A DNA stretch of 64,000 nt from Pecten maximus (lineage: Eukaryota). The notes under the pieces are model-generated. The model was not told the DNA's origin. It did no database searches and saw only the letters and a list, made by a program, of their open reading frames with translations. Positions 6,101-29,200 of the stretch are shown in pieces (positions within the stretch are counted from its first letter, which is position 1; each line of letters begins with the position of its first letter). Position numbers and translations under genes: made by a program. The DNA lies in assembly GCF_902652985.1 (NCBI RefSeq), contig NC_047020.1:15748001-15812000 (forward strand), read 5' to 3'.

Positions 6101-9100
6101 TGTCTGATATTCACATTGTTTTATTATACTTGACACAATTACCTGGTTTGAACTGGTTTACTCTGTTTTATAGTTTCACTTATACGTAGTAACATGGACT
6201 CTTTTTCAGCTTGCTCTTCATCTACCATAAATTATGTAGATCTATACATTTATATATTTTTTGTTGTTTCTATCCCAATATTTATAATAAAACCGTTATG
6301 TTTTGAATTCATGCAGAGTGATAAAATGTCATATTTACTGAGCTATAAATTTTTATGTTTCTAATTAACAGACAGTGAAGTTTAAGTCCTATTTACTCAG
6401 TATGGGTATACCCGATCCTGTGACCAGAGAAACACACGGAACTGGTGACAAATACTACTCGGAGTTAGCTAAACAGTTGTCCAAGGTCCTAGAAAATCAA
6501 CTTCAGGTAATCATACATCTCATACAAACAGTTGTTCAATGTCCTAGAAAATCAATATTTTGATCTATTCATACAAGTTATGCCATGTCACCATTTAAAA
6601 AAAAAATGAAATATTAAGTAAAGTCATAAACATATCTACATAAAATCATAGATAATTATGACATCATAATAAATAAATGAAGTTATATGATTATCTCTAT
6701 ATTCCGTCAAAAATCCACTCTCTTATATAGAAATTCATTTGAGCATTCTCTCTTACATTTTCATAAATTTGAGTTATGTGATCAACAGAATCTTACCGTT
6801 GAGTTCAGTAATTTATTAGGTCCAGAGTCTTTAGGAGATTGCGTATTAATTATTTTTTGATAAATTCCATAATACATAGCTATGTAAGATCCTCTATATG
6901 TTATAAAGTAGTTTACGCGTTAGTCTCACACTGACACAGATGTTATCTACTCCAACAGGAATGTGGTGGAATCATGACATTAACAGATGTTTACTGCCGT
7001 GTGAACAGAGCTAGAGGAATGGAGGTGAGCCATGTCAGGATAAACCTGTTGATCACCTAGTTTACAACAAAGTGATACTGTGATACAGCTTGTAGCTTGT
7101 GTCCTCCTACAGATTTTCCATTGTAGGTGGTGGGAGTCTAAAAGGAAGCTTGGGTCAGCAGGTCCATAGAATGCTATCACGAAGCACTTACCCGGTAGGA
7201 GGGGGTTGCGATAGCTCAGTTGTGTCAGACTATGTAACCTCAGGTGAAGATCAGAGGTGTTTGGTTTGATGCTGCCTACCCATGATCATTTGTGTTTCTG
7301 GGGAAGCTGAGAAACAAACTGGTCTGTGCTGCCATGGTAGTATCCTTGGGCAAGACACTTTACCTTGATTACTCTGGATGGCATGGAAAGGGCCTCACTT
7401 ATGTTGTTAAGTGAGGTAGCTACAAGGGGATCCCAACTTAAAATAGCCATGGCTGTTCACGGGGCGATTAACCCAGCAAAATAACAATAGAGGATATGAC
7501 TTATAATTTCATAGAACACCTGTAATTAGGCTGTCATTGTTGTGTATGCATCAATATATAAAGTTATAAAACAGTAAATATATACATACTAATGTCTAGT
7601 AATATTTGATATACTTAACTAATTACTGTCTGCACATTACGAATTAGACGAGAGAAAAAGTAAATGTAATTTGTTATTTAGGTATTACTAATATCCTATG
7701 CCATGAAGCCTGTAAGCTCTAGTGATACACAAAAACATGTAATACCAAAAATACTTTTTACTATTCATCAATGAGCACTTCTTCACAATTATTCTGATTT
7801 ATTAGCCCACCATCATCAGATGGTGGGCTATTCAAATCGCCCTGCGTCCGTGGTCCGTCGTCCGTCCGTCCGTCCCTCCGTCCGTCCGTCCGTAAACAAT
7901 TCTTGTTATCGCTAATCCTCAGAGAGTACTGAAGGGATCTTTCCCAAATTTCATATGTGGGTTCCCCTTGGTGCCTAGTTATGCATATTGCATTTTGAGA
8001 CCAATCGGAAAACAACATGGCCGACAGGCAGCCATCTTGGATTTTGACAATTGAAGTTTGTTATCGCTATTTCTGAGAAAGTACTGAAGGGATCTTTCTC
8101 AAATTTCATATGTAGGCTTCCCTTGGTGCCTAGTTATGCATATTGCATTTTGAGACCAATCAGAAAACAACATGGCCGACAGGCAGCCATCTTGGATTTT
8201 GATAATTGAAGTTTGTTATCGCTATTTCTGAGAAAGTACTGAAGGGATCTTTCTCAAATTTCATATGTAGACTCCCCTTGGTGCCTAGTTATGCATATTG
8301 CATTTTAAGACCAATCGGAAAACAACATGGCCGACAGGCAGCCATCTTGGATTTTGACAATTGAAGTTTGTTATCGCTATTTCTCAGAAACTTATGAAGG
8401 GATCTTTCTGAAATTTCATATAAAGGTTCCTCTTGGTGCCTAGTTATGCATATTGCGTTTTGAGACCAATTGGAAAACAACATGGCCGACAGGCAGCCAT
8501 CTTGGATTTTGACAATTGAAGTTTGTTATCGCTATTTCTCAGATACTTATGAAGGGATCTTTCTCAAATTTCATATGTAGGTTTCCCTCGGTGCCTAGTT
8601 ATGCATATTGCATTTTGAGACCAATCAGAAAACAACATGGCCGACAGGCAGCCATCTTGGGTTTTGACAATTGAAGTTTGTTATCGCTATTTCACAGAAA
8701 GTACTGAAGGGATCTTTCTGAAATTTCATATGTAGGTTCCCCTCTGTGCCTAGTTATGCATATTGCATTTTGAGACTATTCGGAAAACAACATGGCCGAC
8801 AGGCAGTCATCTTGGATTTTGACAATTGAAGTTTGTTATCGCTATTTCTCAGAAAGTACTGAAGGGATCTTTCTCAAATTTCATATGTAGGTTTCCCTCA
8901 GTGCGTAGTTATGCATATTGCATTTTGAGACCAATCGAAAAACAACATGGCCGACAGGCAGCCATCTTGGATTTTGACAATTGAAGATTGTTATCGCTAT
9001 TTATCAGAAATTGCTGAAAGGATCTTTCTGAATTTCATTTGTAGGTTGCCCTCTGTGTCTAGTTATACATATTGGATTTTGAGACCAGTCAGAAAACAAC

Positions 9101-12100
9101 CTTGCTGACAGGCAGCCATCTTGTATTTTGAAAATTGAAGTTTGTTATCGCTATTGTACAGAAGGTACTGAAGGGATCTTTCTCAAATTTCATATGTAGG
9201 TTCCCCTTGGTCCCTGGTATTGCATTTTGGGACCAATCGGAAAACAACATGGCCGACAGACAGCCATTATCGCTAAATCTTAAATTTTATATATAGGTTC
9301 CCCTTGTTTGAAAAGTACTAGATCTAGAGGGCTGTTTCTGAATTTACACAGATTAGTAAGACTTAGAAGAAGGGAAAAGTAGAGAAAAGATCAATCTGAC
9401 ATGGAACCTATAAAGATCATTCAATGGTGGGCGCCAAGATCCCTCTGGGATCTCTTGTTGATTGTCCTTTTGATCCGTGTTTTGTTTTTGTCCATTCAGT
9501 TGCTTTCACCAGAGGATATGTTACATGCATGTGAAATGTTGGAATCACTGCGACTCCCTGTTAGGTAAGCTTATCATAACTGAAGGTGAAATGTCACACT
9601 CATAAATACTGCCTATGAGGTAGATTTGCTGTAAAGTACAGTTTCTAGGAGGAATAAGGTGAAACACCAGTCATTCTTCATCTGCTAAAACTGACCATAA
9701 TCTTAGGCACCACAATTCTGACCTGTCACCTGTCTGCTAAAACTGACTATAATCTTAGTCAGCACAATTCTAAAAGGTCACCTGTCCGCTAAAACTTACC
9801 ATAATCTTAGGCACCACAATTCTGACCAGTCACCTGTCTGCTAAACTGACCATAATCTTAGGCACCACAATTCTGACCAGTTACCTGTCTGCTAAAACTT
9901 ACCATAATCTTAGGCACCACAATTCTGACCAGTCACCTGTCTGCTAAACTGACCATAATCTTAGGCACCACAATTCTGACCAGTTACCTGTCTGCTAAAA
10001 CTGACCATAATCCTCATTTGTCTGCTAAAACTGACCATAATCTCTGGCTATTAAATTCTAACCAGTTGCCTGTCAGTTTAAACTGACCATAATTTCTGGC
10101 TTCAAAATACTGACCGTTCACCTGTTAAACTGACCATAATCTCTGGCTTTGAAAGTCTGACCAGTCACCTGTCTGTTAAAACTGACCATAGTCCCAGGCT
10201 TCAAAAGTCTGACCAGTCACCTGTCTGTTAAAACTGACCATAATCCCAGGCTTCAAAAGTCTGACTGGTCACCTTTCAGTGAAAACTGACCATAATCTCT
10301 GGTTCCAAATTTCTGACCAGTTAGCTGCCTCTTAAAACTGACCATAAGCACAGGCTTCTAAGTTCTGACTGGTCACCTGCCTGTTAAAACTGATCATAAC
10401 ATCCAGCTCCAAAATTCTGACTGGTCACCTGTCTGTTAAAACTGACCATAATCTCTGGCTCCGAAATTCTGACCGGTCACCTGTCTCATAAAACTTGTAT
10501 GTAATAATCCTATACTTCAAAATTCTAATTAGGCACCTGTTTTAGGACAGCCAACCAGTCAGAATTTTGGAGCCTGTGGTTATGGTTGATTTTAGAGGAC
10601 TATCTGCATGATAAAATTTCTGTAGGTAAAGCGCGAGTTTTCAGATTTCAATATAAATGTCCATATAATTACAGAGGATTGAATGTCATTGTTTCAGAAT
10701 GAAGGTGTTTGATAGTGGAGTGATAGTTCTACAGCTACAGTCACACGATGAGGAACGAGTGATAAGTGATATAACAGATTTGGTAGGTTATCACTAAGCT
10801 TTCAGATATTTATGTAGATTGAACCCTATTACACTCTGTAGGACAGCTTTATTATCATGATTCACTTTTTCTGGAAGTTCTAGATTTACCTGATCCTGAT
10901 TGATACCATGGTGTAACTTTTTATCATACGCCCTGGACTATCGGACATTCTGATGTTATCATATTTCTCTCATATTCTTCATATCAGAATTTTAAGATTT
11001 GTTTATGGTATTCCACAAGATAAGTTTTAAGGTAACACAGCAGCACACAGGACAAGCTTTGATATAAAAGTACACTGTACAAGTTTTAATGTAACACACA
11101 CTACACAAGACGAAGTTTCAAGGTCAAAGTAAAGTACTACTTAAGAATTCAAATAAAGATTCAATATTCAAATATTTTATACCAATTTGCAGGTGAAGGA
11201 GAAAACAAAACTGACTGCTGACGAGTTGGCCCAGCTACAAGGAGTTTCTGTGATATTGGCCAAAGAAAGGTACGGCATGTTTTTATTTATCTGTAGTTTT
11301 CCAAAATAATGATACATTTTTCATAATGAAGAACTGGTGTTTCTATTTGCATCTTTGATTTTAATGATCGAAATGATACTATATGTACATGAATACATCG
11401 AGGTTCCCCAAGCAGTGATGTTTTGTTATCATGTTTAACTTTTGTTAGTTAATTTTCAAATTTAGGAAAGACACTCGCTTCTACTTCAATATACAATGTA
11501 TGTTTATATCTAACCCATTTGAGGATGAGAGTATGATTAAATGAAATTTCATAATCCAGAGTTTGTCTGAAAGCTATCCATATATATCCTTTTGAAATGA
11601 AAATAGGACACTTAATTTTCAGGAGGCCCATTCAAATCTTGAGGTACCCCAATTAATGTGAAAAGGACCCCATTCATAAATTACCGAGAGCAAACCTTAC
11701 AGTATACAAATAATTAGGGCCCCGCATCGAGAGATGCGGGTGCCCTATAGTAATCAGGTTGTCCGTCCGTCCGTCCGTCTGTCCGTTTTTTTAGCCCACC
11801 ATCATCAGATGGTGGGCTATTCAAATCGCCCTGCGTCCGTGGTCCGTCGTCCGTCCCTCCGTCCGTAAACAATTCTTGTTATCGCTATTTCTCAGAAAGT
11901 ACTGAAGGGATCTTTCTCAAATTTCATATTTAGGCTCCCCTTGGTGCCTAGTTATGCATATTGCATTTTGAGACCAATCTGAAAACAACATGGCCGACAG
12001 GCAGCCATCTTGGATTTTGACAATTGAAGTTTGTTATCGCTATTTCTCAGAAAGTACTGAAGGGATCTTTCTGAAATTTCATATGTAGGTGACCCTCTGT

Positions 12101-15100
12101 GCCTAGTTATGCATATTGCATTTTGAGACTATTCGGAAAACAACATGGCCGACAGGCAGTCATCTTGGATTTTGACAATTGAAGTTTGTTATCGCTATTT
12201 CTCAGAAACTAATGAGGGGATCTTTCTGAAATTTCATATGTAGGTCCCCCTCAGTGCCTAGTTATGCATATTGAATTTTAAGACTAATTGGAAAACAACA
12301 TGGCCGACAGGCAGCCATCTTGGATTTTGACAATTGAAGTTTGTTATCGCTATTTCTCAGAAACTAATGAGGGGATCTTTCTGAAATTTCATATGTAAGT
12401 TCCCCTTGGTGCCTAGTTATGCATATTGCATTTTGAGACCAATCTGAAAACAACATGGCCGACAGGCAGCCATCTTGGATTTTGACAATTGAAGTTTGTT
12501 ATCGCTATTTCTCAGAAACTAATAAGGGGATCTTTCTGAAATTTCATATGTAGGTCCCCCTCAGTGCCTAGTTATGCATATTGAATTTTGAGACTAATCG
12601 GAAAAAAACATGGCCGACAGGCAGCCATCTTGGATTTTGACAATTGAAGTTTGTTATCGCTATTTCTGAGAAAGCACTGAAGGGATCTTTCTCAAATTTC
12701 ATATAAAGGTTCCTCTTGGTGCCTTGTTATGCATATTGCATTTTGAGACCAATTGGAAAACAACATGGCCGACAGGCAGCCATCTTGGATTTTGACAATT
12801 GAAGTTTGTTATCGCTATTTCTCAGAAAGTACTGAAGGGATCTTTCTGAAATTTCATATGTAGGTGACCCTCTGTGCCTAGTTATGCATATTGCATTTTG
12901 AGACTATTCGGAAAACAACATGGCCGACAGGCAGTCATCTTGGATTTTGACAATTGAAGTTTGTTATCGCTATTTCTCCGAAACTAATGAGGGGATCTTT
13001 CTGAAATTTCATATGTAAGTTCCCCTTGGTGCCTAGTTATGCATATGGCATTTTGAGACCAATCTGAAAACAACATGGCCGACAGGCAGCCATCTTGGAT
13101 TTTGACAATTGAAGTTTGTTATCGCTATTTCTCAGAAACTTATGAGGGGATCTTTCTGAAATTTCATATGTAAGTTCCCCTTGGTGCCTAGTTATGCATA
13201 TTGGATTTTGAGACCAGTCAGAAAACAACCTGGCTGACAGGCAGCCATCTTGTATTTTGAAAATTGAAGTTTGTTATTGCTATTGTACAGAAGGTACTGA
13301 AGGGATTTTTCTCAAATTTCATATGTAGGTTCCCCTTGGTCCCTGGTATTGCATTTTGGGACCAATTGGAAAACAACATGGCCGACAGACAGCCATTATC
13401 GCTAAATCTTAAATTTTATATATAGGTTCCCCTTGTTTGAAAAGTACTAGAGGGCTGTTTCTGAATTTACACAGATTAGTAAGACTTAGAGGAAGGGAAA
13501 AGTAGAGAAAAGATCAATCTGACATGGAACCTATAAAGATCATTCATGGTGGGCGCCAAGATCCCTCTGGGATCTCTTGTTTCTTCTGCACAAAAATGAT
13601 TGAAGGAGATGAAGGATTTGTATCAAATTGGAACTGATGATTCCTCATGCATCCTAGATCAGATGTGTAGTATTTCATGCAAATCGAATTCAAAATGGCT
13701 GTTAGGCGGCCATATTGGATTTTAACATTAACATGAAAATACTGGATCTTTGTTGTTTTTAACTGTTCGCTATTCGATTATGCAAAGTTGTCAAGAAATA
13801 AACCAAGAGCTAACTGACAGAATGATCAAACTCATAGTTCAAGGTCACAAGTTCAAAGGTCAACGGTCAAGGTCATCCTGGGTCGGCTTCAAAATGCCAG
13901 GTAATCGACCCTTTTGGATTTTAGCAGTCAAAACAATTTTGACATTTTCTTATCAATGAATGATCTTGTTTTTGATATGCTTTTATATTAATTTGAAACA
14001 TTAGTTATAGCAGATTGCAGAATTGTTTATTAGGGCCCCGCATCAAAGATGCGGTGCCCTATAGTAATCAGGTTGTCTGTCTGTCCGTCTGTCTGTCCGT
14101 CTGTCCATTTTTTTCTTTTGCGCCAAATTATTGACAAGAGTTGGAGGATTTCGGTGAAAATTGGTACATAGTGGTATTTAGGGAAGCCAAAAACAATGGT
14201 ACCACTTACAAAATCAACTGTTGCCATGGTAACAAATGGAGGTTTCTGATTGGTTGAAATATCGATATTGTTCGATTTCGGTGAAAATTGGTACATAGTG
14301 GTATTTAGGGAAGCCAAACACAATGGTACCACTTATGAAACCGTCTGTTACCATGGTAACAAATGGAAGTTTCTGATTGGTTGAAAATTCGATATTGTTC
14401 GATTTCGGTGAAAATTGGTACATAGTGGTATTTAGGGAAGCCAAACACAATGGTACCACTTACGAAACCGTCTGTTGCCATGGTAACAAATGGAGGTTTC
14501 TGATTGGTCAAAATTTAGTTATTGTTCGATTTTGGTGAGAGAATTGGTATATAGGGGTTTTGAGGGAACAATGGTTCACCTTTCCAAAACCTGTGTTGTC
14601 ATGGGAATGAAACAGAGGCTTCTGATTGCGGCGAAAATTGGTACATACAGGTATTGAGGGAAGCCGATTTTCGATGATGTAACATTTTACATATTGACAT
14701 AAAACCACAATACACACATACATATACAATACTATTACAGTCTTCCATTAGCATAATTTATGACTTATGCAAAGTTGGTCACAATCAAACAAGATATCAA
14801 CTGACCAAAGTTCAAAGTCAATGGGTCATATGTTAAGGTCGGTTTGACATTTTTTAAATGGTATTAAAGATTTTGTTATGACATTATGAAGGTAAGTTGG
14901 TGTCAAGCGACCAAATTTTGAAGTTGATTGGGTCTAAATATAAAAAGTTTTAAAACAAAAAAAGGTGAAAAAAGTACTGGTTTGGATTTCTTATACCTCA
15001 AATGACAAAAAAAGGACATTATTAAAATATTTTTAAAAATCCTTTTTTTTCTCCCCTTTTCTTCACATTTGGTATGTTTTGTTTTTCAGAAAACCCTCTC

Positions 15101-16144: not shown

Positions 16145-16365
16145 GGGGTCGCGGTGGCCAAGTGGTTAAGGTGTCCCTGACACTTTATCTCTAGCCCTCC
16201 ACCTCTGGGTTGCGAGTTTGAAACCTAAGTGGGGCAGTTGCCTGGTACTGACCATAAGCCAGTGGTTTTTCTCCGGGTATTCCAGCTTTCCTCCACCTCC
16301 AAAACCTGGCACGTCCTTAAATGACCCTGGCTGTTAATAGGACGTTAAACAAAAACAAACCAAAA
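16145..16365 (+). mobile_element. tRNA-derived SINE with V-domain-like core and 12-bp TSD
   Basis: A box TGGCCAAGTGG; B-box-like GAGTTTGAAACC; core GGTTTTTCTCCGGGTATTCCAGCTTTCCTCCACC; tail GGCTGTTAATAGGACGTTAAAC(AAAC)n; TSD TTGTCCGACCAG at 16133-16144 and 16366-16377. Confidence 0.88.
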
Positions 16366-17212: not shown

Positions 17213-20200
17213 TTATGAAGTTACCTCATTAGGACATCCTACGAGAATGTTATTTTTAGGTGTACATGATGGAGGAATTAGAGAGCACAAATCTACAGTA
17301 TACCCACTCTCTTTGGCTAGCAATGCACGATCTGTGTCCACAAGGTTCATACAGTATTTACCTACAAAAGGAATGTAGCATATTAGCCCTTTTGATTCAT
17401 CTAATTTCAGATTGAGATCTTAGTATATTTAAAATAGGTAAAAGTGACATTTCTTTTTGTTTGATTTTAGTCGAGACCATTATTCAGCACATTACAAAGA
17501 GAAATCTGTTCTGAAGTCGGCAAATATCCAATTGCTTTAATTTAAACTAGTCTAAGTCCAGACAGACGCAAGATAAACACTTGACTCATAAAGAGCTGAA
17601 TTGAAGTTCTGACAAATACATGTAGTGAGATATGTTTGGATAATTTAAGACACCCTCAATATTATAATATTCTATTAATAATTGGAGCATTTAATTTGAT
17701 AAAAATTTTGCTGGTTAGCAAATTACACACCGGAAGTGGCACTATATAACACAATGGTAAGTAAAATGATTCCAAAATTCTGTACCTTGCTCCAAACAAA
17801 TCTAGGCATTTTGATTAGTTTTGGTCCTCGTAATAAAAGACTAATAATATTATGCCACATATTGCTTCTCAATATCCAAGATTGTTTACACAATTTGATT
17901 TTCTAGATCTTGACTGTTAACATACTGCTCCTGGAAATCAATTATCATTACAAATGACTATAACATACCTTGCTCCTCGAGATCTCTATTGAATTCTGTC
18001 TGATCTGCTGCATGACCCAACACAATAAAATCCTGTTAAAATAGAACATCTTGTAAGTACCAAGTCCTGTAAACAGTACATAGCCCTGTTCAGAACGGTC
18101 ATAGTCGGTGAGAAACCTAGCAATGCCGTCATGTAGGTGGTAAACCAATAAAATAACAGATAATGGACTTGTTCCCCATAAATTGTCATTCTCAACAGAT
18201 CATCAGGTTCTCTACAAACACCCTTATGAGTGGGACCTGTGACATAAAACTGTCCTCCTATTGGTTAAGTGAAATCTTGTTTAATCTTGACTTCACCAAA
18301 GCCTGATCAAGTGTAGAACTTGATGTTACCATACTAGAGTGTCGAATACTGATCAAGTGTAGAACTTGGTGTTATCGTACTAGAGGGTCGAATCCTGGTC
18401 AAGTGTTGAACTTGATGTTACCATACTAGAGTGTCAAATACTGATCAAGTGTAGAACTTGGTGTTATCATAATAGAGTGTCAAATCCTGGTCAAGTGTTG
18501 AAATTGATGTTACCATACTAGAGTGTATTTGGTGAAAGGGTTTATACACTAATATACTCAGCGTCCCTTCATTATCGTGGTGGAACCATAATTGTGGTAA
18601 CAGTGACAAGGACATTGCCAAACTAACAAGAGATCTGAGCCGGGTTAAATGATATCCTACAAAGTTTTTCAAAGATTCACATTAGGGATACAATACGATT
18701 ATTCTATAATAATGACTCCATTCTCCCAATTTTGGATAAAAATTTGTCAAAAATCATAGCATAACTCATTATCTCGCATACGGGGAGCATATACTACCTT
18801 GGATGGAATGTTGGCCGTCTTGAAATGCTGACTCCTTGGATACGTCATCAGGTGTGTGTTTTGGATGCCACCATAGCAACAAGGGCAGATAACAAACTTT
18901 GCATTGTTCTGTAGACATTGATGTAGAACCATGTCTGTGGCTGAGCCACAAGCATGCAGACATGTCCCGACATCAAAGCTCCCTCGGAAATAATCCTGAT
19001 TACACTATGAAAACAAAAGGTTTCATAAATTGAAAGTAAACTTACTAAATCTTTTAAAACTCTTCAATACATGTATTACTCAAGCCTGTTCAATGGAATT
19101 AGGGATTAATAGGAAGAGTAATATTTCTGTGTTTCTATTTGATTAACAATTTGCATTTCAAATGATATTGCTAGCTTTTTTGATATTTTCGAGAAAATAT
19201 TTCTAATATTTCTTTTTCAATTTGCATTTTTCTGTCTCATTGTATCAAAGGAATACTATATAGCTATCAGTTAGGTATTTAAACTGCTTAAATCTGTTGT
19301 ATAATTTCTCAACAAGTTGTCTGCAAGTAGGAAAAATGTCTTCAGCAAAACAAATCAAACAATAATCAGCACTCTCACAGATCAATTTTAGTTTTACCTG
19401 GAAAAGTGTAACGTTGTTGAGACTGGCTTTCTCCACACGAGTCTTGGCACGCATCAAAGATGACTCATTATTCTCAACCAAATAAACCTACAAATAATAA
19501 AATCACATTGTACACATGAAGTCAAAGATACATAGAATATGTATGTAATGGTTTCCAATTGAATGTTAAGTATAGTTCACAAATATAGTAATATATATAG
19601 TGAAACTGACTTTAGTCTAAACACTGTGGGACCGAGTTAATGTGTCAGATATTTTTGGTTTGGTTAATTTAAGGTAACATCCTATTAACAGCCAGGGTCA
19701 TTTAAGGACGTGCCAGGTTTTGGAGGTGGAGGAAAGCCAGAGAACCCGGAGAAAATTGTCTGCTTAGAGTCAGTACCATGCAACTGCCCCACGTGGGTTT
19801 CAAAATTCTCGCGACCCAGAGGTGGAGGGCTAGTGATAAAGTGTTGGGGCACCTTAACCAATGCGCCATTGCGGCCCCAGTGTGTCAGATGTGTGAGTGA
19901 AAATGAGTGAAATATATCTATTTGTGGTATTCACAGAGAGAAGATGTAATTAATTATCTAGAAAGATATCATCACAGTGCTATACAGATAGTTTGATATT
20001 TAGTAAATATTTAGTACCGAGGTTTGTTGCAAATAGGTATCAACACAAAAACTGTTATTTATCCTATGATAACTTCACCTGCACCAGATCTGAATTAAGG
20101 TGAAGTTCATAAAATGTATCATTTTGTCATAATTAATAGCACTTTGGATAATATTTTAGCATGTCTGTGTTATACCACATGCATAAACAACTGTGGAGAA

Positions 20201-23200: not shown

Positions 23201-26200
23201 TGTTTTTTTTAGTGCTTTACCAATATATTGGAAGTAAAGTCAACAGAAATCAACAGGAATCTGTTTTGATACTAACACAATTTCATTTGATTTCTTGCAT
23301 AAAATAAAGAAACTTAAAGTATGGTAATTTACACTAATAATGCTTGAAATATGTCATACTGAAAAATGTCAAAGTGAACATATACTACATCTTTTGTATA
23401 ATTGTTTCAGTACCTAAGTTCCAATTCATCCTCCTTGCATTCCTGCTCCTGGGAAGGAGAAACAAAACAATATTTTGATTCCCGTTGACTGGAAATATCA
23501 GAAACATCTGAGGTGTCTAGAAGGTCAGTGTTATACCCACAATTCCTTGCACATTCCTGTATCCGTGGTAAACTAGTCATGTGTTGGATCCAGGAAATAA
23601 TTCTAGGCACGTGACCAATGAGGCATTGAAGGTCAAATGACAAACTTTCCTGTAAATTAAAGATATCATATTTTGATATTGGTTTTATCAATATATAATT
23701 CAAAAGAAAGAATTGTAGTTATTGTACCCTAAGCATATAGAGTATTAATATTAAATAATATTAGATTATTCTATTAAATCTTAATTCTAAAACATGATGA
23801 GATTGTCACTTAGAAAATACTGTTGGATTTTAAAAGTACTAGTGTATGTTTTTTTGCTGGGTTTATCGCCCTGTGAATAGCCATGGTCATTTTGAGGTAG
23901 GGTCTCCTTGTAGTAGGTCATGACTACCTCACTGAACTTACAAGAGGCCCTTTGCATGCCATCCAGAGCAATTAGGGTAAAGTGTCTTGCCCAAGGACAC
24001 AATCACGACAGTACAGACTGGCCCTTTTCACAGCTTTCCAAGAAACACACACTGAAAAGGCCTAGGTAGGGAGAATTGAACCATGCACCTCGGATCTTCA
24101 CCAGAGGTTATATGCAGCCGACACTTTAAATGTCTGAGCTATCGATGCCTTCCCTAATCTGTTTGAAATGCTTCCATGATTGTAGCTCTTTTAGCCTAAT
24201 ATCAAACACTCACAATTCTGAGATTGATGAAAAAGTCTGTCCCTATTGTCAATTATATACATCAATACTATTGTAAGCACAAATAACCGAAACTTAGCTG
24301 TCTGGGTACCTCGAGCTCACTGTCAGATTAACTTGACTGTCTGGGTAACTCGACTGTCAGATTAACTCGACTGTCAGATTAACTCGACTGTCAGGTTAAC
24401 TCGACTGTCAGATTAACTCGACTGTCAGATTAACTCGACTGTCAGATTAACTTGACTGTCTGGGTAACTTACTGTCAGATTAACTCGACTGTCAGATTAA
24501 CTCGACTGTCAGGTTAACTCGACTGTCAGATTAACTTGACTGTCTGGGTACCTCGAGCTCACTGTCAGATTAACTTGACTGTCTGGGTAACTCGACTGTC
24601 AGATTAACTCGACTGTCAGGTTAACTCGACTGTCAGATTAACTCGACTGTCAGGTTAACTCGACTGTCAGATTAACTCGACTGTCAGATTAACTCGACTG
24701 TCAGGTTAACTCGACTGTCAGATTAACTTGACTGTCTGGGTAACTTACTGTCAGATTAACTTGACTGTCAGGTTAACTCGACTGTCAGATTAACTCGACT
24801 GTCAGGTTAACTCGACTGTCAGATTAACTTGACTGTCTGGGTAACTCGACTGTCAGATTAACTCGACTGTCAGGTTAACTCGACTGTCAGGTTAACTCGA
24901 CTGTCAGGTTAACTTGACTGTCTGGGTAACTCCACTGTCAGGGTAACTCCACTGTCAGATTAACTCGACTGTCATGGTAACTTCACAGTCAGGTTAACTT
25001 GACTGTCTGGGTAACTCGACTGTCAGGGTAACTCCACTGTCAGATTAACTCGACTGTCATGGTAACTTCACAGTCAGGTTAACTTGACTGTCTGGGTAAC
25101 TCGACTGTCAGGGTAACTCGACTGTCAGATTAACTCGACTGTCATGGTAACTTCACAGTCAGATTAACTTGACTGTCTGGGTAACTCGACTGTCAGGGTA
25201 ACTCAACTGTCAGGGTAACTCGACTGTCATGGTAACTTCACAGTCAGATTAACTTGACTGTCTGGGTAACTCGACTGTCAGGGTAACTCCAAAGTCTTGG
25301 GTAACTCAACCGTGTTACTAGACTGTTTGGGTAACTCAACTGTCAAGGTAACTCCAAAGTCTGGGTAACTCAACTGAGTTACTAGACTGTTTGGGTAACT
25401 CAACTGTCAGGGAAATGTCAGCAATGGACCTGTGTTAATGTCATTTTAAGATATCTGATTTCTATAAAAAAGGACATGCAATATTTGTGGGATAGGGTTA
25501 AAAAGGGACTAATATGTAAAAGTTCATGAAGATTTAAAATTCCAGGTATACAGTGTAATTGAATGGAAACCTACCAACAAATGGTACACAAACGGGAAGA
25601 GGATAAGGTCTGCCACTGTGATTGTATTTCCTTCAGCATACAAATGAATCAGATCAACGTCACGAAATGTCAATGTGTTCAAAAAGCTTGTAAGTTCCTC
25701 AAGACTTTGGAAAGATTTCTCTAAAGTGCATCTGTCTGACTGATTAAGCTGGTTTTGTTGCGAGCTGCTAATCCCGTTTTTAATTTCCAGATTTTTAACC
25801 GATATTCCATTTTCACAAGAACTGGATTTCTTTCCAGTTTCTTTGGATACACCACCATTACACATCAAGTTAATTCTGCTAACACAATGGGTCAATGGAT
25901 AGTCACGTTGCAATCTAAACCGGGAAAGGCCAGAATTGCTGTCAGTTTCCTCTGCTTCCTTTATAACTTGTGACAATAAACATCTTTTTTGTTTGTCATC
26001 GTTGTGAAGTTTGGCTGGTGTCTGGAAATGCCATTCCAATTTCATAACATCCTCTGGGACATCAATCTTTGGTTCACTGTCAGTATCTTTAATCTCTCTG
26101 AAAAGTAGGAAACATTATAATCACACAAGATTCCTGCAGTCATTGTACAAATATAATACAAAGCATATGTTGTTGACCTGGACATTGAGAAAAAAGATAA

Positions 26201-29200
26201 TATCAGTGCTGACCTTTAAACTCATACATGGCTCAAGAAATTTGGATAAAATTGAGGACTACACTTTCCATATTGTAACAAATATAATATTAATTTTAGT
26301 AATCAAATATTCTACTCTGGTTCCAATGACCTTGCGTGAAAAAGCCAGAATACAACTATGAGGGGACAAAACATGAAATTGTGCTAGCCAGTGTGTGAAA
26401 AAGTAACACCAATCTTACATCTCTGGGTCACCATTTAGGAAAAGATGATGGAAGAAGGACACAACACCAAAGTATAAGCTCTCTGGTCCTTTAGACCAGG
26501 TCACAGATCTGAGCTAAATATTCTATTATTTCATAATTTGACCTTGATGTTTGACTCTGAGTAAAAATGACCTCTGACTCAGTGACCTTGATCTTTGGTC
26601 AGTTGACTACTTGTTTAATTCTGGGCAACTATGCCATAATAAAATATTAACCAATAAATACTAAAATATTTGACCTTTGACCTAGTGACCTTATCATTTG
26701 GTCTGTCAACTTTTTGTTTAATTCTTACCAATATTTCTTCAGTGTCACAAAAAATGTTCATCAGTGAAAAGATAGATCTTTGACCCAGTACCCTTGACCT
26801 TTTGTTGTCACTTAACTCCCTGTTTAATTCCATTTCTTGACTAATGCTTAACAACAGGCTGTGCTCCAGACACATTGTCAATGCCACTATGACATATTAA
26901 GTCACTAATAATTAACACCTACCAAGTAGTCACTAATCATTTGAGCATAAATTAATCTTTCACATCAAATGTAGGTAAATGGAATACCTGATTTGTTGGA
27001 TCAATTCACCAATGCTGTTTGGAATGTCCACTTCACATAGCTTCGTCCATCCTGAAACCTACACACTCATCAATCAGCCCTGTGTGTTGGACAAAGATAT
27101 TTAAACTCTATGGCAGGATAAGGATAACTAATATCAGGACCCAAGTTCTACCAAATACAAGCCATAATTATTGTTTACAGAGGGTTTACCACATTTACAT
27201 TATGTGAAGCTCTAACAATAGTCGCCGAGATAAAATATCTGAATCCTGTGAATCATACCTGGGAAATAGTATTAATGTATGTATTGTAAATATGTTATTT
27301 CCTGGGTGGGTAGTAGGGGGAGGTGATATTTCGATATGTAAACTATACATGTTTTTAAGCCCCCTAGTATAAATTTCCAAGTTTACAGTATATCTTTATT
27401 TCTTATCAACGACATATACACAACATATCAAACTCTCTTTGTAAATAAGGTAATACTAACATTGAAGTGTAATTCATTGATTTGCAATATTTGTTTGTGT
27501 TATTTAACTTAAAAAACAACTATTAACATATCCTAAAATCATTCAACATAACAAAGAGGTAGTTATCATTATCCAATAATATGAGGTCATTAAGGATACA
27601 CTACCCGGTATATGATAGGAATGAAATACAAAGAATGAGAAAGGTCTGTATATTCTTAAAAAAATTATTACTGAATAGGCCCATTGAAAAGTCCTATCAT
27701 TTCTCTGACGACACATTATTAAACTGCATATTATTAAGGCAATGATTTCAACATAAGTTAAGACAATCTAAAATAAAAACTTCATAACTTACCTCAGCAC
27801 AAGCCTTTAAGCTCCCACCACGGAATCCCTGTGAAAAATTACAAACACTAAATATCATTTCCAGAGAAAACAAAATCATTACATCTGAACAGGTGGGTTT
27901 GGTTTATTTTGTTGAATGTCCTATTAACAGCTAAGGTCATTTAAGAACGGCCTCCCATGCGTGCGACATGCATGCGTGTGGTGAGTGCATAAATGATATG
28001 TGTGTTTTGGGAGGCTGAGGTATGTTCGTGTTAAGTCTCCTTGTGATAGGCAGGAACTTTTGCCGATTTATAGTGCTACCTCACTGAAGCATACTGCCAA
28101 AGACACCCAGCAGGACACCCCACCCGGTCACATTATACTGACAACGGGCGAACCAGTCGTCCCACTCCTAATATGCTGAGTGCTAAGCAGGAGTAGCAAC
28201 TACCATTTTTAATGACTCTGGTATGTCTCGGCCAGGGGACAGAACCCAAAGCCTTCCTCACAGGGGCGAACGCTCAACCGAAGACCAAAAGTGAGGCATT
28301 GTCAAGGGAGACATTAGGAAGAAGAAAGTTGTTCAGAAAGAAGAGAAAAAATTGAGTCACCTCTTACGATCATGCAATGGGGGTAGCAGGTACAATTCTT
28401 ACGCCCTACCTGCAGGGGATTCTGAACAGGTACTACATATATATACTGAGTATGAGTATATATATTAACTCAATAAAATACAGTCATGCTGAAGCATTAC
28501 ATGTCATCTCACAGCTCCACCCCTATTACAGTCCTTTACAAGTGTCTGAAGTTTGATCCCAATTCCTTAAGTTACAAAGCCTCTAAAACACTGACAAATA
28601 TTTTCGAAATTTGTAATAGTGACCTTAACCCAACAACCTTGGCACTCTAGCATTTATCTGTCCGAGATAAAACTATCCTAAATAAGAGTCTAAAGTTTAA
28701 TGAAAATGAGAAACAAGCTATAGAGCTAAAAAGGATATTCTAAAACTAGGATTTTTAAAAAAAATAGTTCTGGTGACCTTGAACAGACACACCGGAAACT
28801 CAAAATTATCAGAGGTATTATGGTCCTTTGTATTTGTGTGAAGTTGGATAAAAATCCCTCATGGAATGAAGCCTCTTGAGGGCTAGCGCTGACAAGGATT
28901 TTCTAAATATTTAAAGTAAATGTGACCTTGAACGTGACCAGGAAACCTTGACAGTGATCCTGTCCGATTTATTGTGGGTCTATGACTATGTATTTGGGTG
29001 AAGTTTGATCAAAATCCCTCACAGAATGATGCCGCTAAAGGAAATCTAAAAGTCCCTTCAGTTTTACTGGTATGGAACTAAAAATAATCAAAATTAATTA
29101 TCTGTATTGTGTGTATAAGAATGGCATTCCCCAAGATAATATGGTTTCAGACAAGAGGCCTAGAGGGGCCTACAACGCCCACCCAACTCCACCTTGGATA

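Follow-up and report, generated by a model that had tools for sequence, protein, structure and literature searches.

A SINE on the minus strand of the Pecten maximus genome raises the question of why an element whose Pol III boxes are lost across its whole family should begin with a pseudoknot-capable module, and what that module would do as RNA. The stretch of DNA that we analysed (the window) comprises 64,000 nucleotides of contig NC_047020.1, positions 15,748,001-15,812,000 of the forward strand, and all coordinates below are window positions. The SINE copy is 526 nt long, occupies 27895-28420 on the minus strand and lies between two copies of an 11-bp target-site duplication (TSD), ACCTGTTCAGA, at 28421-28431 (5' copy) and 27884-27894 (3' copy). 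An earlier note on this DNA had placed the module at 28420-28352 of the minus strand, directly inside the duplication, and it is present there. Downstream on the same strand follow a CT-rich linker (28301-28350, limits approximate), a decayed tRNA-derived head (28225-28300, limits also approximate) with its A-box region at 28287-28273 and its B-box region, GGTTCTGTCCC, at 28246-28236, the MESC/Meta conserved domain (approximately 28110-28210, by eye against the published alignment) and an I/Nimb-type 3' tail (27895-27945) that ends in short A/C repeats. ARAGORN detects no tRNA in the tRNA-derived head, and the broken B box remarked on in the earlier note turned out to be family-wide, with the GGTTCTGTCCC core present in 25 of the 29 copies scored. 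Moreover, the module is not unique to this copy. A search of the scallop's own genome returned 351 candidates; 40 of them were scored, and among 30 loci retrieved the majority hold a copy of about 520-540 nt, so that the SINE is multi-copy.

Several features of the surroundings were also recorded. A 36-nt stretch at 27793-27828 of the minus strand, flanked by cag and gtaagt, resembles a small exon by eye; if so, the SINE would be intronic and in sense orientation. The window also contains tandem arrays, with repeat periods of 155 nt and 17 nt, at 7900-9290, 11850-13420 and 24200-25400. Two inverted copies of another tRNA-headed SINE, with a tail that resembles that of the SINE studied here, lie at 16145-16363 and 19675-19878.

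By sequence comparison, the element is a pectinoid MESC SINE with a LINE-derived head of the type published in 2016 (PMC4758252). In the sections of that paper covered here, Matetovici et al. describe pectinoid MESC SINEs of 520 bp, in which a 68-bp head like the 5' end of Nimb-17_LMi is followed first by 88 bp of CT-rich sequence, then by the tRNA-derived part and finally by the MESC domain. The heads are named LP (LINE promoter) and are also found in the 5' ~70 nt of I-3_DR and RTE-9_CPB (PMC4758252). The window SINE has the same order of CT-rich region, tRNA-derived head and MESC domain, the length of about 520 bp and the TSDs. It matches the Chlamys alignment of supplementary figure S2 in the part of PMC4758252 available to us nearly letter for letter, including the broken B box, and its ~68-bp 5' domain corresponds by eye to the Nimb-17 homology region of that figure. 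The element is thus the same as the published MESC/LP SINEs, for which the sections covered of PMC4758252 give no RNA fold, covariation or viral occurrence. The proposal that a SINE with decayed Pol III signals had borrowed a LINE-derived 5' cassette is therefore correct in substance and not new, given that description and the Meta SINEs known to have Nimb partners. In the same genome we found an intact LINE (L425:1340-7450, contig C17 of G000) with an ORF1 of 499 aa, an ORF2 of 1,223 aa bearing APE, RT and RNase H domains, and a 14-bp TSD; L427 and L438 are further LINEs of this kind. The tail of L425 is common to the window SINE, and from this likeness L425 is likely the mobilising partner of the SINE. 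The tail match agrees with the use of Nimb partners by Meta SINEs reported in the part of PMC11481361 that we covered.

Comparison among copies indicates that the window SINE is an ordinary, damaged copy of the published SINE, whereas its head belongs to a real, uncatalogued RNA family. A 12-nt deletion in the linker of the window copy creates a T6 run that is shared by only 2 of 37 copies, all 37 of which carry T4. The suggestion that T6 would stop Pol III consequently fails as a family feature, and we rejected the run as a terminator because it arises from this deletion. The same deletion removes TGGGA, the 3' strand of stem P3, which is kept in 33 of the 37 copies; the 5' strand remains at 28378-28383, as judged from the 37-copy comparison. 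In addition, the window copy reads TGACTCAA in place of CGACTAAA, with the changes CGAC>TGAC and TAAA>TCAA. The CGTAAGA heptamer noticed in both loops did not generalise either, its first occurrence being found in 1 of 27 representatives of distinct families. The conserved piece at that site is AGAAUW (28394-28399, the 3' end of loop 3), which is present in 24 of the 27. Hence, the T6 run and the paired CGTAAGA loops are peculiarities of this copy or of its family, and the window copy, having lost stem P3, is probably impaired.

On comparative evidence, the head is a predicted H-type pseudoknot with covarying stems, joined by an AGAAUW linker to a hairpin that is nearly invariant and has a loop resembling a T-loop. 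Its plan reads stem 1 (3-5 bp), U, stem 2 (~7 bp), a loop with AGAAUW at its end, then stem P3 and, after a small internal loop, GUCG-UAARAGG-CGAC-UAA. The two stems of the knot that had been proposed from this copy, CCCT/AGGG and GCAGGT/ACCTGC, can both pair, although comparison with homologues shifts the register and assigns U28414 to loop 1. In the window copy, stem 2 would then comprise 7 bp, GCAGGUA (28407-28413) with UACCUGC (28386-28392), and stem 1 would comprise 3 bp, CCC (28415-28417) with GGG (28406-28404). The loop-1 U is found in 25 of the 27 representatives. Stem 1 reaches 4-5 bp in the GCCC subfamily, a G standing at that place in 20 of 37 copies. By itself the window module folds no better than its shuffles (z = -0.24; 77 of 200 as good, by a method without pseudoknots), and the case therefore rests on the homologues.

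These homologues were collected with the hairpin core as anchor, which gave 95 matches in the own genome (30 retrieved; control 0), at least 122 metagenome stretches and 46 loci in prokaryote assemblies, in addition to viral loci. The 27 representatives, 21 non-viral and 6 viral, were chosen by eye, and one without 3' flank was dropped for the pairing tests. With sequence-only anchors, stem 2 formed 6.08 of 7 pairs with its own partner strand against 4.51 with swapped strands in the remaining 26 families; the corresponding values were 3.77 against 3.29 of 4 for stem 1 and 4.35 against 3.69 of 5 for P3. In each case 0 of 20,000 permutations was as high, several of the representatives being related and phylogeny being ignored by both the permutation and the alignment controls. 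In the six viral copies alone, stem 2 holds (21 of 20,000 permutations), stem 1 holds weakly (347 of 20,000) and P3 pairing has no significance (8,872 of 20,000). An unfitted MAFFT alignment of 18 non-viral copies agreed for stem 2: 5 of its 7 pairs change on both sides, and its score was 0.321 against 0.160 in shuffled and at most 0.169 in slid controls, while the mere count of such pairs did not exceed that in shuffles (143 of 500). The fold descriptor was passed by 11 of 350 shuffled flanks. No Rfam family was found for the window region at E <= 10, nor for the module in 12 other loci at E <= 1. Covariation and the lack of Rfam matches support the idea of a structured, uncatalogued RNA. In the literature searched, outside of which lie most subscription journals and Repbase, we found no description of the head fold or of its viral occurrence.

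The downstream hairpin P4 (28356-28370, with a 7-nt loop UAARAGG and the C>T change in the window copy) behaves differently from the stems of the knot. It showed no two-sided change in the 18-copy alignment, all loci having been selected on P4. A search for P4 variants in viral contigs gave 20 loci, three of them with a full module and all three with the same P4; two further searches gave 43 and 11 loci, of which the 39 new ones all scored at most 27.3 bits. Covariation of P4 is thus unsupported, and its constancy could mark a protein- or DNA-binding site. In the portion of PMC4810234 seen, a T-loop is defined as a pentaloop on a closing pair, with U in position 1 and A in position 5. The P4 loop, G-UAARA-GG-C, fits this pattern (PMC4810234), with the reservation that the loci were selected on that very sequence, and it is predicted to be a T-loop.

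The module is also found outside this SINE family. The similar GTCGTAAGAGGCGACTAA motif that the earlier note placed near LINE 5' ends proved real, since in L207 and L225 the module is followed by ORF1 and then by an APE-bearing ORF2. Both of these animal LINE 5' ends lie inside prokaryote genome assemblies, where they likely represent host contamination. The ORF1 of L425 is 44% identical to theirs, and the UTR segment that follows their module is common to L425 (match scores 96 and 82, with a shuffle maximum of 74 for L225). In front of this segment L425 carries a different head of about 170 nt. Heads are thus exchanged between elements. The L425 head has no Rfam match and may resemble RTE heads. 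A second LP-type SINE family of the own genome lacks a tRNA part (L039, L040, L034, L046, L050, L051, L054 and L057); it has two tandem modules, with stem 1 as CCCG/CGGG, as well as a linker rich in pyrimidines and a tail of the I/Nimb type. Minimal elements, each about 190 nt long (L228:1-235, L206:97-300 and L139), consist of the module, a short linker and a LINE-like tail. Two of them stand at contig ends in bacterial assemblies, probably as chimeric or mis-binned animal DNA. None of 20 LINE stretches of the own genome, drawn from 150 protein matches, bears the module at its 5' end, and the four model matches within them are SINE copies. Among the 46 prokaryote-assembly loci, 9 scored at least 34 bits; five of the nine were training sequences, and they look like animal DNA. 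No phage match to the module was found. The SINE family is present in contigs from RNA runs, which carry no strand, start, 5' end or level.

Support for a role as RNA comes from viruses. Six distinct viral loci emerged from five viral scans, and a covariance model built from the non-viral copies gave them 38.7-66.1 bits, against at most 27.3 bits for 75 loci with the core only; such core-only matches in viral and prokaryote contigs are mostly chance. Five of the six lie in RNA-virus contigs, in which the module is on the coding strand, between 30 and 122 nt from the contig end; the stop codon of the nearest long frame precedes it by 6-101 nt. Proteins of these contigs match RdRP_3 (L305 and L356), RdRP_4 (L285), a noda-like capsid (L305) and Peptidase_A21 (L259). 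For the fifth contig, L245, the protein has no PDB match and the only lead to an RdRp is a feature-level Atlas match. L245 carries two tandem modules that differ by an A-U to G-C swap in stem 2. The sixth locus, L275:4953-5027, is intergenic in a DNA-virus contig of 212 kb, close to NAD ligase and BRO genes; here a full module precedes a 1,046-aa ORF by about 170 nt. Whatever its role, a fold that animal retroelements share with unrelated viruses constitutes an RNA family not yet catalogued. The viral copies could in principle be neutral captures of host retroelement RNA, the fold being of use to retroelements alone, for instance in ORF2p binding or as a second-strand signal. Although the small number of distinct viral loci fits such captures, and each copy could stem from an already compensated host family, this origin is highly improbable: all five RNA-virus copies are in the sense orientation and in the 3' UTR, no LINE tail follows the viral copies by eye, and the compensating change in L245 separates tandem copies within one virus.

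The loop lengths point in the same direction. Inserts of about 60-70 nt and about 135-145 nt are found in loop 3, and stem 2 still pairs. Among the metagenome matches listed, 88 have the hexamer and 54 of these also the 5' anchor; mean stem-2 pairing in them was 6.20 of 7 with short spacers (41 loci), 5.75 at 26-100 nt (8 loci) and 5.80 at 135-144 nt (5 loci), values given with no null. Pairing that is kept across such inserts fits an RNA better than a DNA promoter of fixed spacing. Together with the covariation and with viruses that have no DNA stage, the variable spacing argues for a role as RNA.

What the head would do for the element may be read from the element's 5' end. Among 35 SINE copies examined, 15 bear TSDs, and in 13 of these the 5' end lies 5-7 nt before GCAGG, at the foot of stem 1; the 15 include two duplicates, and 7-nt TSDs may be chance. 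The published explanation is that LP is a presumed promoter, proposed with Pr77 as the analogy in the sections seen of PMC4758252. The head would then be mainly an internal Pol II promoter with a secondary RNA fold, as in the trypanosome Pr77 promoter/ribozyme. In its favour are a head that replaces or precedes decayed tRNA heads, a B box degenerate family-wide and a P4 that is invariant in sequence without covariation. Nevertheless, we consider it improbable in view of the compensated stems in RNA viruses without a DNA stage and of a spacing that varies by up to ~145 nt. Scallop-type copies also start with pyrimidines, and none of the 13 heads of 5-7 nt starts with G, which would be a weak sign against capped Pol II starts.

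A precise 5' end, a compact knot with invariant loop bases and a module that can be swapped for another structured-looking head (L425) would also suit a new class of self-cleaving ribozyme that would cut at the foot of stem 1 and so liberate the element RNA from read-through transcripts. According to the part of PMC5786205 consulted, 5' ribozymes are known in six LINE clades, a precedent for this idea. However, the ribozyme reading raised in the earlier note was not supported, and we regard it as similarly improbable, as neither the window region nor the other loci match an Rfam ribozyme family and the module shows no known catalytic core. Among the 27 representatives, core motifs of hammerhead, twister-order, hairpin and twister-sister ribozymes were found in none and the HDV L3 motif in two; with the pistol core included, every ribozyme motif occurs in 0-2 of the 27. 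Moreover, a cut would remove the 3' end of a linear RNA-virus genome, twice in L245, and tandem modules inside SINEs would truncate them. A cut by RNase P or at a tRNA mimic was also considered and dropped on reasoning only, since it would fall at P3 and not at stem 1.

We tentatively favour a different role, to which we assign a probability of roughly two in five: the head may stop 5'-to-3' exonucleases (Xrn1/Xrn2) and thereby set or guard the RNA 5' end. SINE RNA would come from host read-through transcripts, in which the head would fold as predicted in cells and the P4 T-loop would dock onto the knot. The knot would halt Xrn1/Xrn2, so that read-through RNA is trimmed to the first base of the element, and the block would protect the uncapped RNA until the partner I/Nimb LINE copies it. 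Trimming to unit length would make the Pol III boxes no longer needed. In viruses, the same block would give short 3' UTR RNAs, as exonuclease-resistant RNAs (xrRNAs) do in the sections seen of the review PMC8374639. The coincidence of SINE 5' ends with the foot of stem 1, heads that can be swapped and the viral 3' UTR copies count for this role. Tandem xrRNAs are usual in flavivirus 3' UTRs, at least in the literature that we could consult in part, and may be compared with the tandem modules of L245. The covered part of PMC12397905 reports that class 3 xrRNAs depend on a T-loop-like contact and stop Xrn1 at the base of P1. Xrn1 is not stalled by ordinary pseudoknots of the frameshift type in the portion of PMC10321173 seen, so that an H-type knot alone would be insufficient. 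In the review, again as far as covered, xrRNA rings have 15-16 nt (PMC8374639); the equivalent here, by count and without a 3D model, is about 14-15 nt in 13 of the 27 representatives, those with compact modules, and much longer in the others. Long loop-3 inserts would break a fixed ring unless looped out, which counts against a block. So do the insignificant P3 pairing in viruses, the lack of two-sided change in P4, the position of the L275 copy 5' of an ORF in a DNA virus and the 20 own-genome LINE stretches without a module at their 5' end.

Some of the same observations would suit a binding site for a host factor, such as the ribosome, an initiation factor or an RNA-binding protein. In the 3' UTRs of viruses and the 5' UTRs of LINEs, the fold would then serve cap-independent translation or ribosome tethering; in SINE RNA it would provide a route to nascent ORF2 protein, much as is proposed for the Alu domain. 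The invariant T-loop-like hairpin and AGAAUW suggest a recognition surface, and a host-factor site would accommodate both the location in the 3' UTR of tombus-, noda-, tetra- and toti-like contigs and the copy upstream of the 1,046-aa ORF. We nevertheless find this explanation rather unlikely, because it leaves unexplained why the module stands at the exact 5' end of elements, and because non-coding SINEs and the minimal elements of ~190 nt retain it.

If the head blocks Xrn1, internal promoters and ribozymes would be joined by a further means by which non-LTR elements define their 5' end, and the success of a SINE with dead Pol III boxes would be explained. According to the parts covered of the 2021 review, no xrRNA had yet been discovered in a cellular RNA (PMC8374639). 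With somewhat greater reserve, we propose that the head may represent a new class of exonuclease-blocking RNA, the first to be shared by viruses and cellular retroelements, in which a T-loop would support the pseudoknot and which would pass among LINEs, SINEs, positive-strand RNA viruses, double-stranded RNA viruses and large DNA viruses and would make the SINE promoter dispensable through trimming. As a fold of 70-80 nt with defined stems, it brings the questions of LP head function and of cellular xrRNAs together in one in vitro experiment.

The module can be compared with several known systems. As a hallmark of about 70 nt at the 5' extremity of otherwise different elements, it is like Pr77/L1TcRz and the HDV-like ribozymes at LINE 5' ends. 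The HDV-like ribozymes have a nested double pseudoknot, an L3 of UYCHCGY and a G at +1. The module differs in its strand order, S1-S2-S1'-S2'-P3-P4-P4'-P3', in having no G start and in showing the L3 heptamer in 2 of 27 representatives, and it has no Rfam match; a loose C-N-A-A after P4 is present in all 27, the loci having been selected on it. The Coremin motif has a GUC..GAC hairpin followed by UAAA-like bases, and its sequence occurs in none of the 27 representatives. Like the module, Coremin is a short conserved viral 3' UTR element with a proposed pseudoknot, although its loop and order differ, as far as the sections of PMC10321173 covered here show. A further comparison is with the class 3 xrRNAs of Tombusviridae and Solemoviridae, including ST9a, as described in the part of PMC12397905 available to us. 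Those have P1 and P2 joined by J1/2, with a T-loop-like L2B inside the apical loop, a scaffold that we did not find in the module, which has a single short stem 1 and a separate T-loop-like hairpin downstream; the module, known here from its sequence, also occurs in animal retroelements and is without an Rfam match. Both nevertheless have a hairpin loop that pairs downstream, which in the module is indicated by stem-2 covariation, and both share a site in viral UTRs, a boundary at the base of the first stem and a motif of the T-loop type, which in the module is predicted (PMC12397905).
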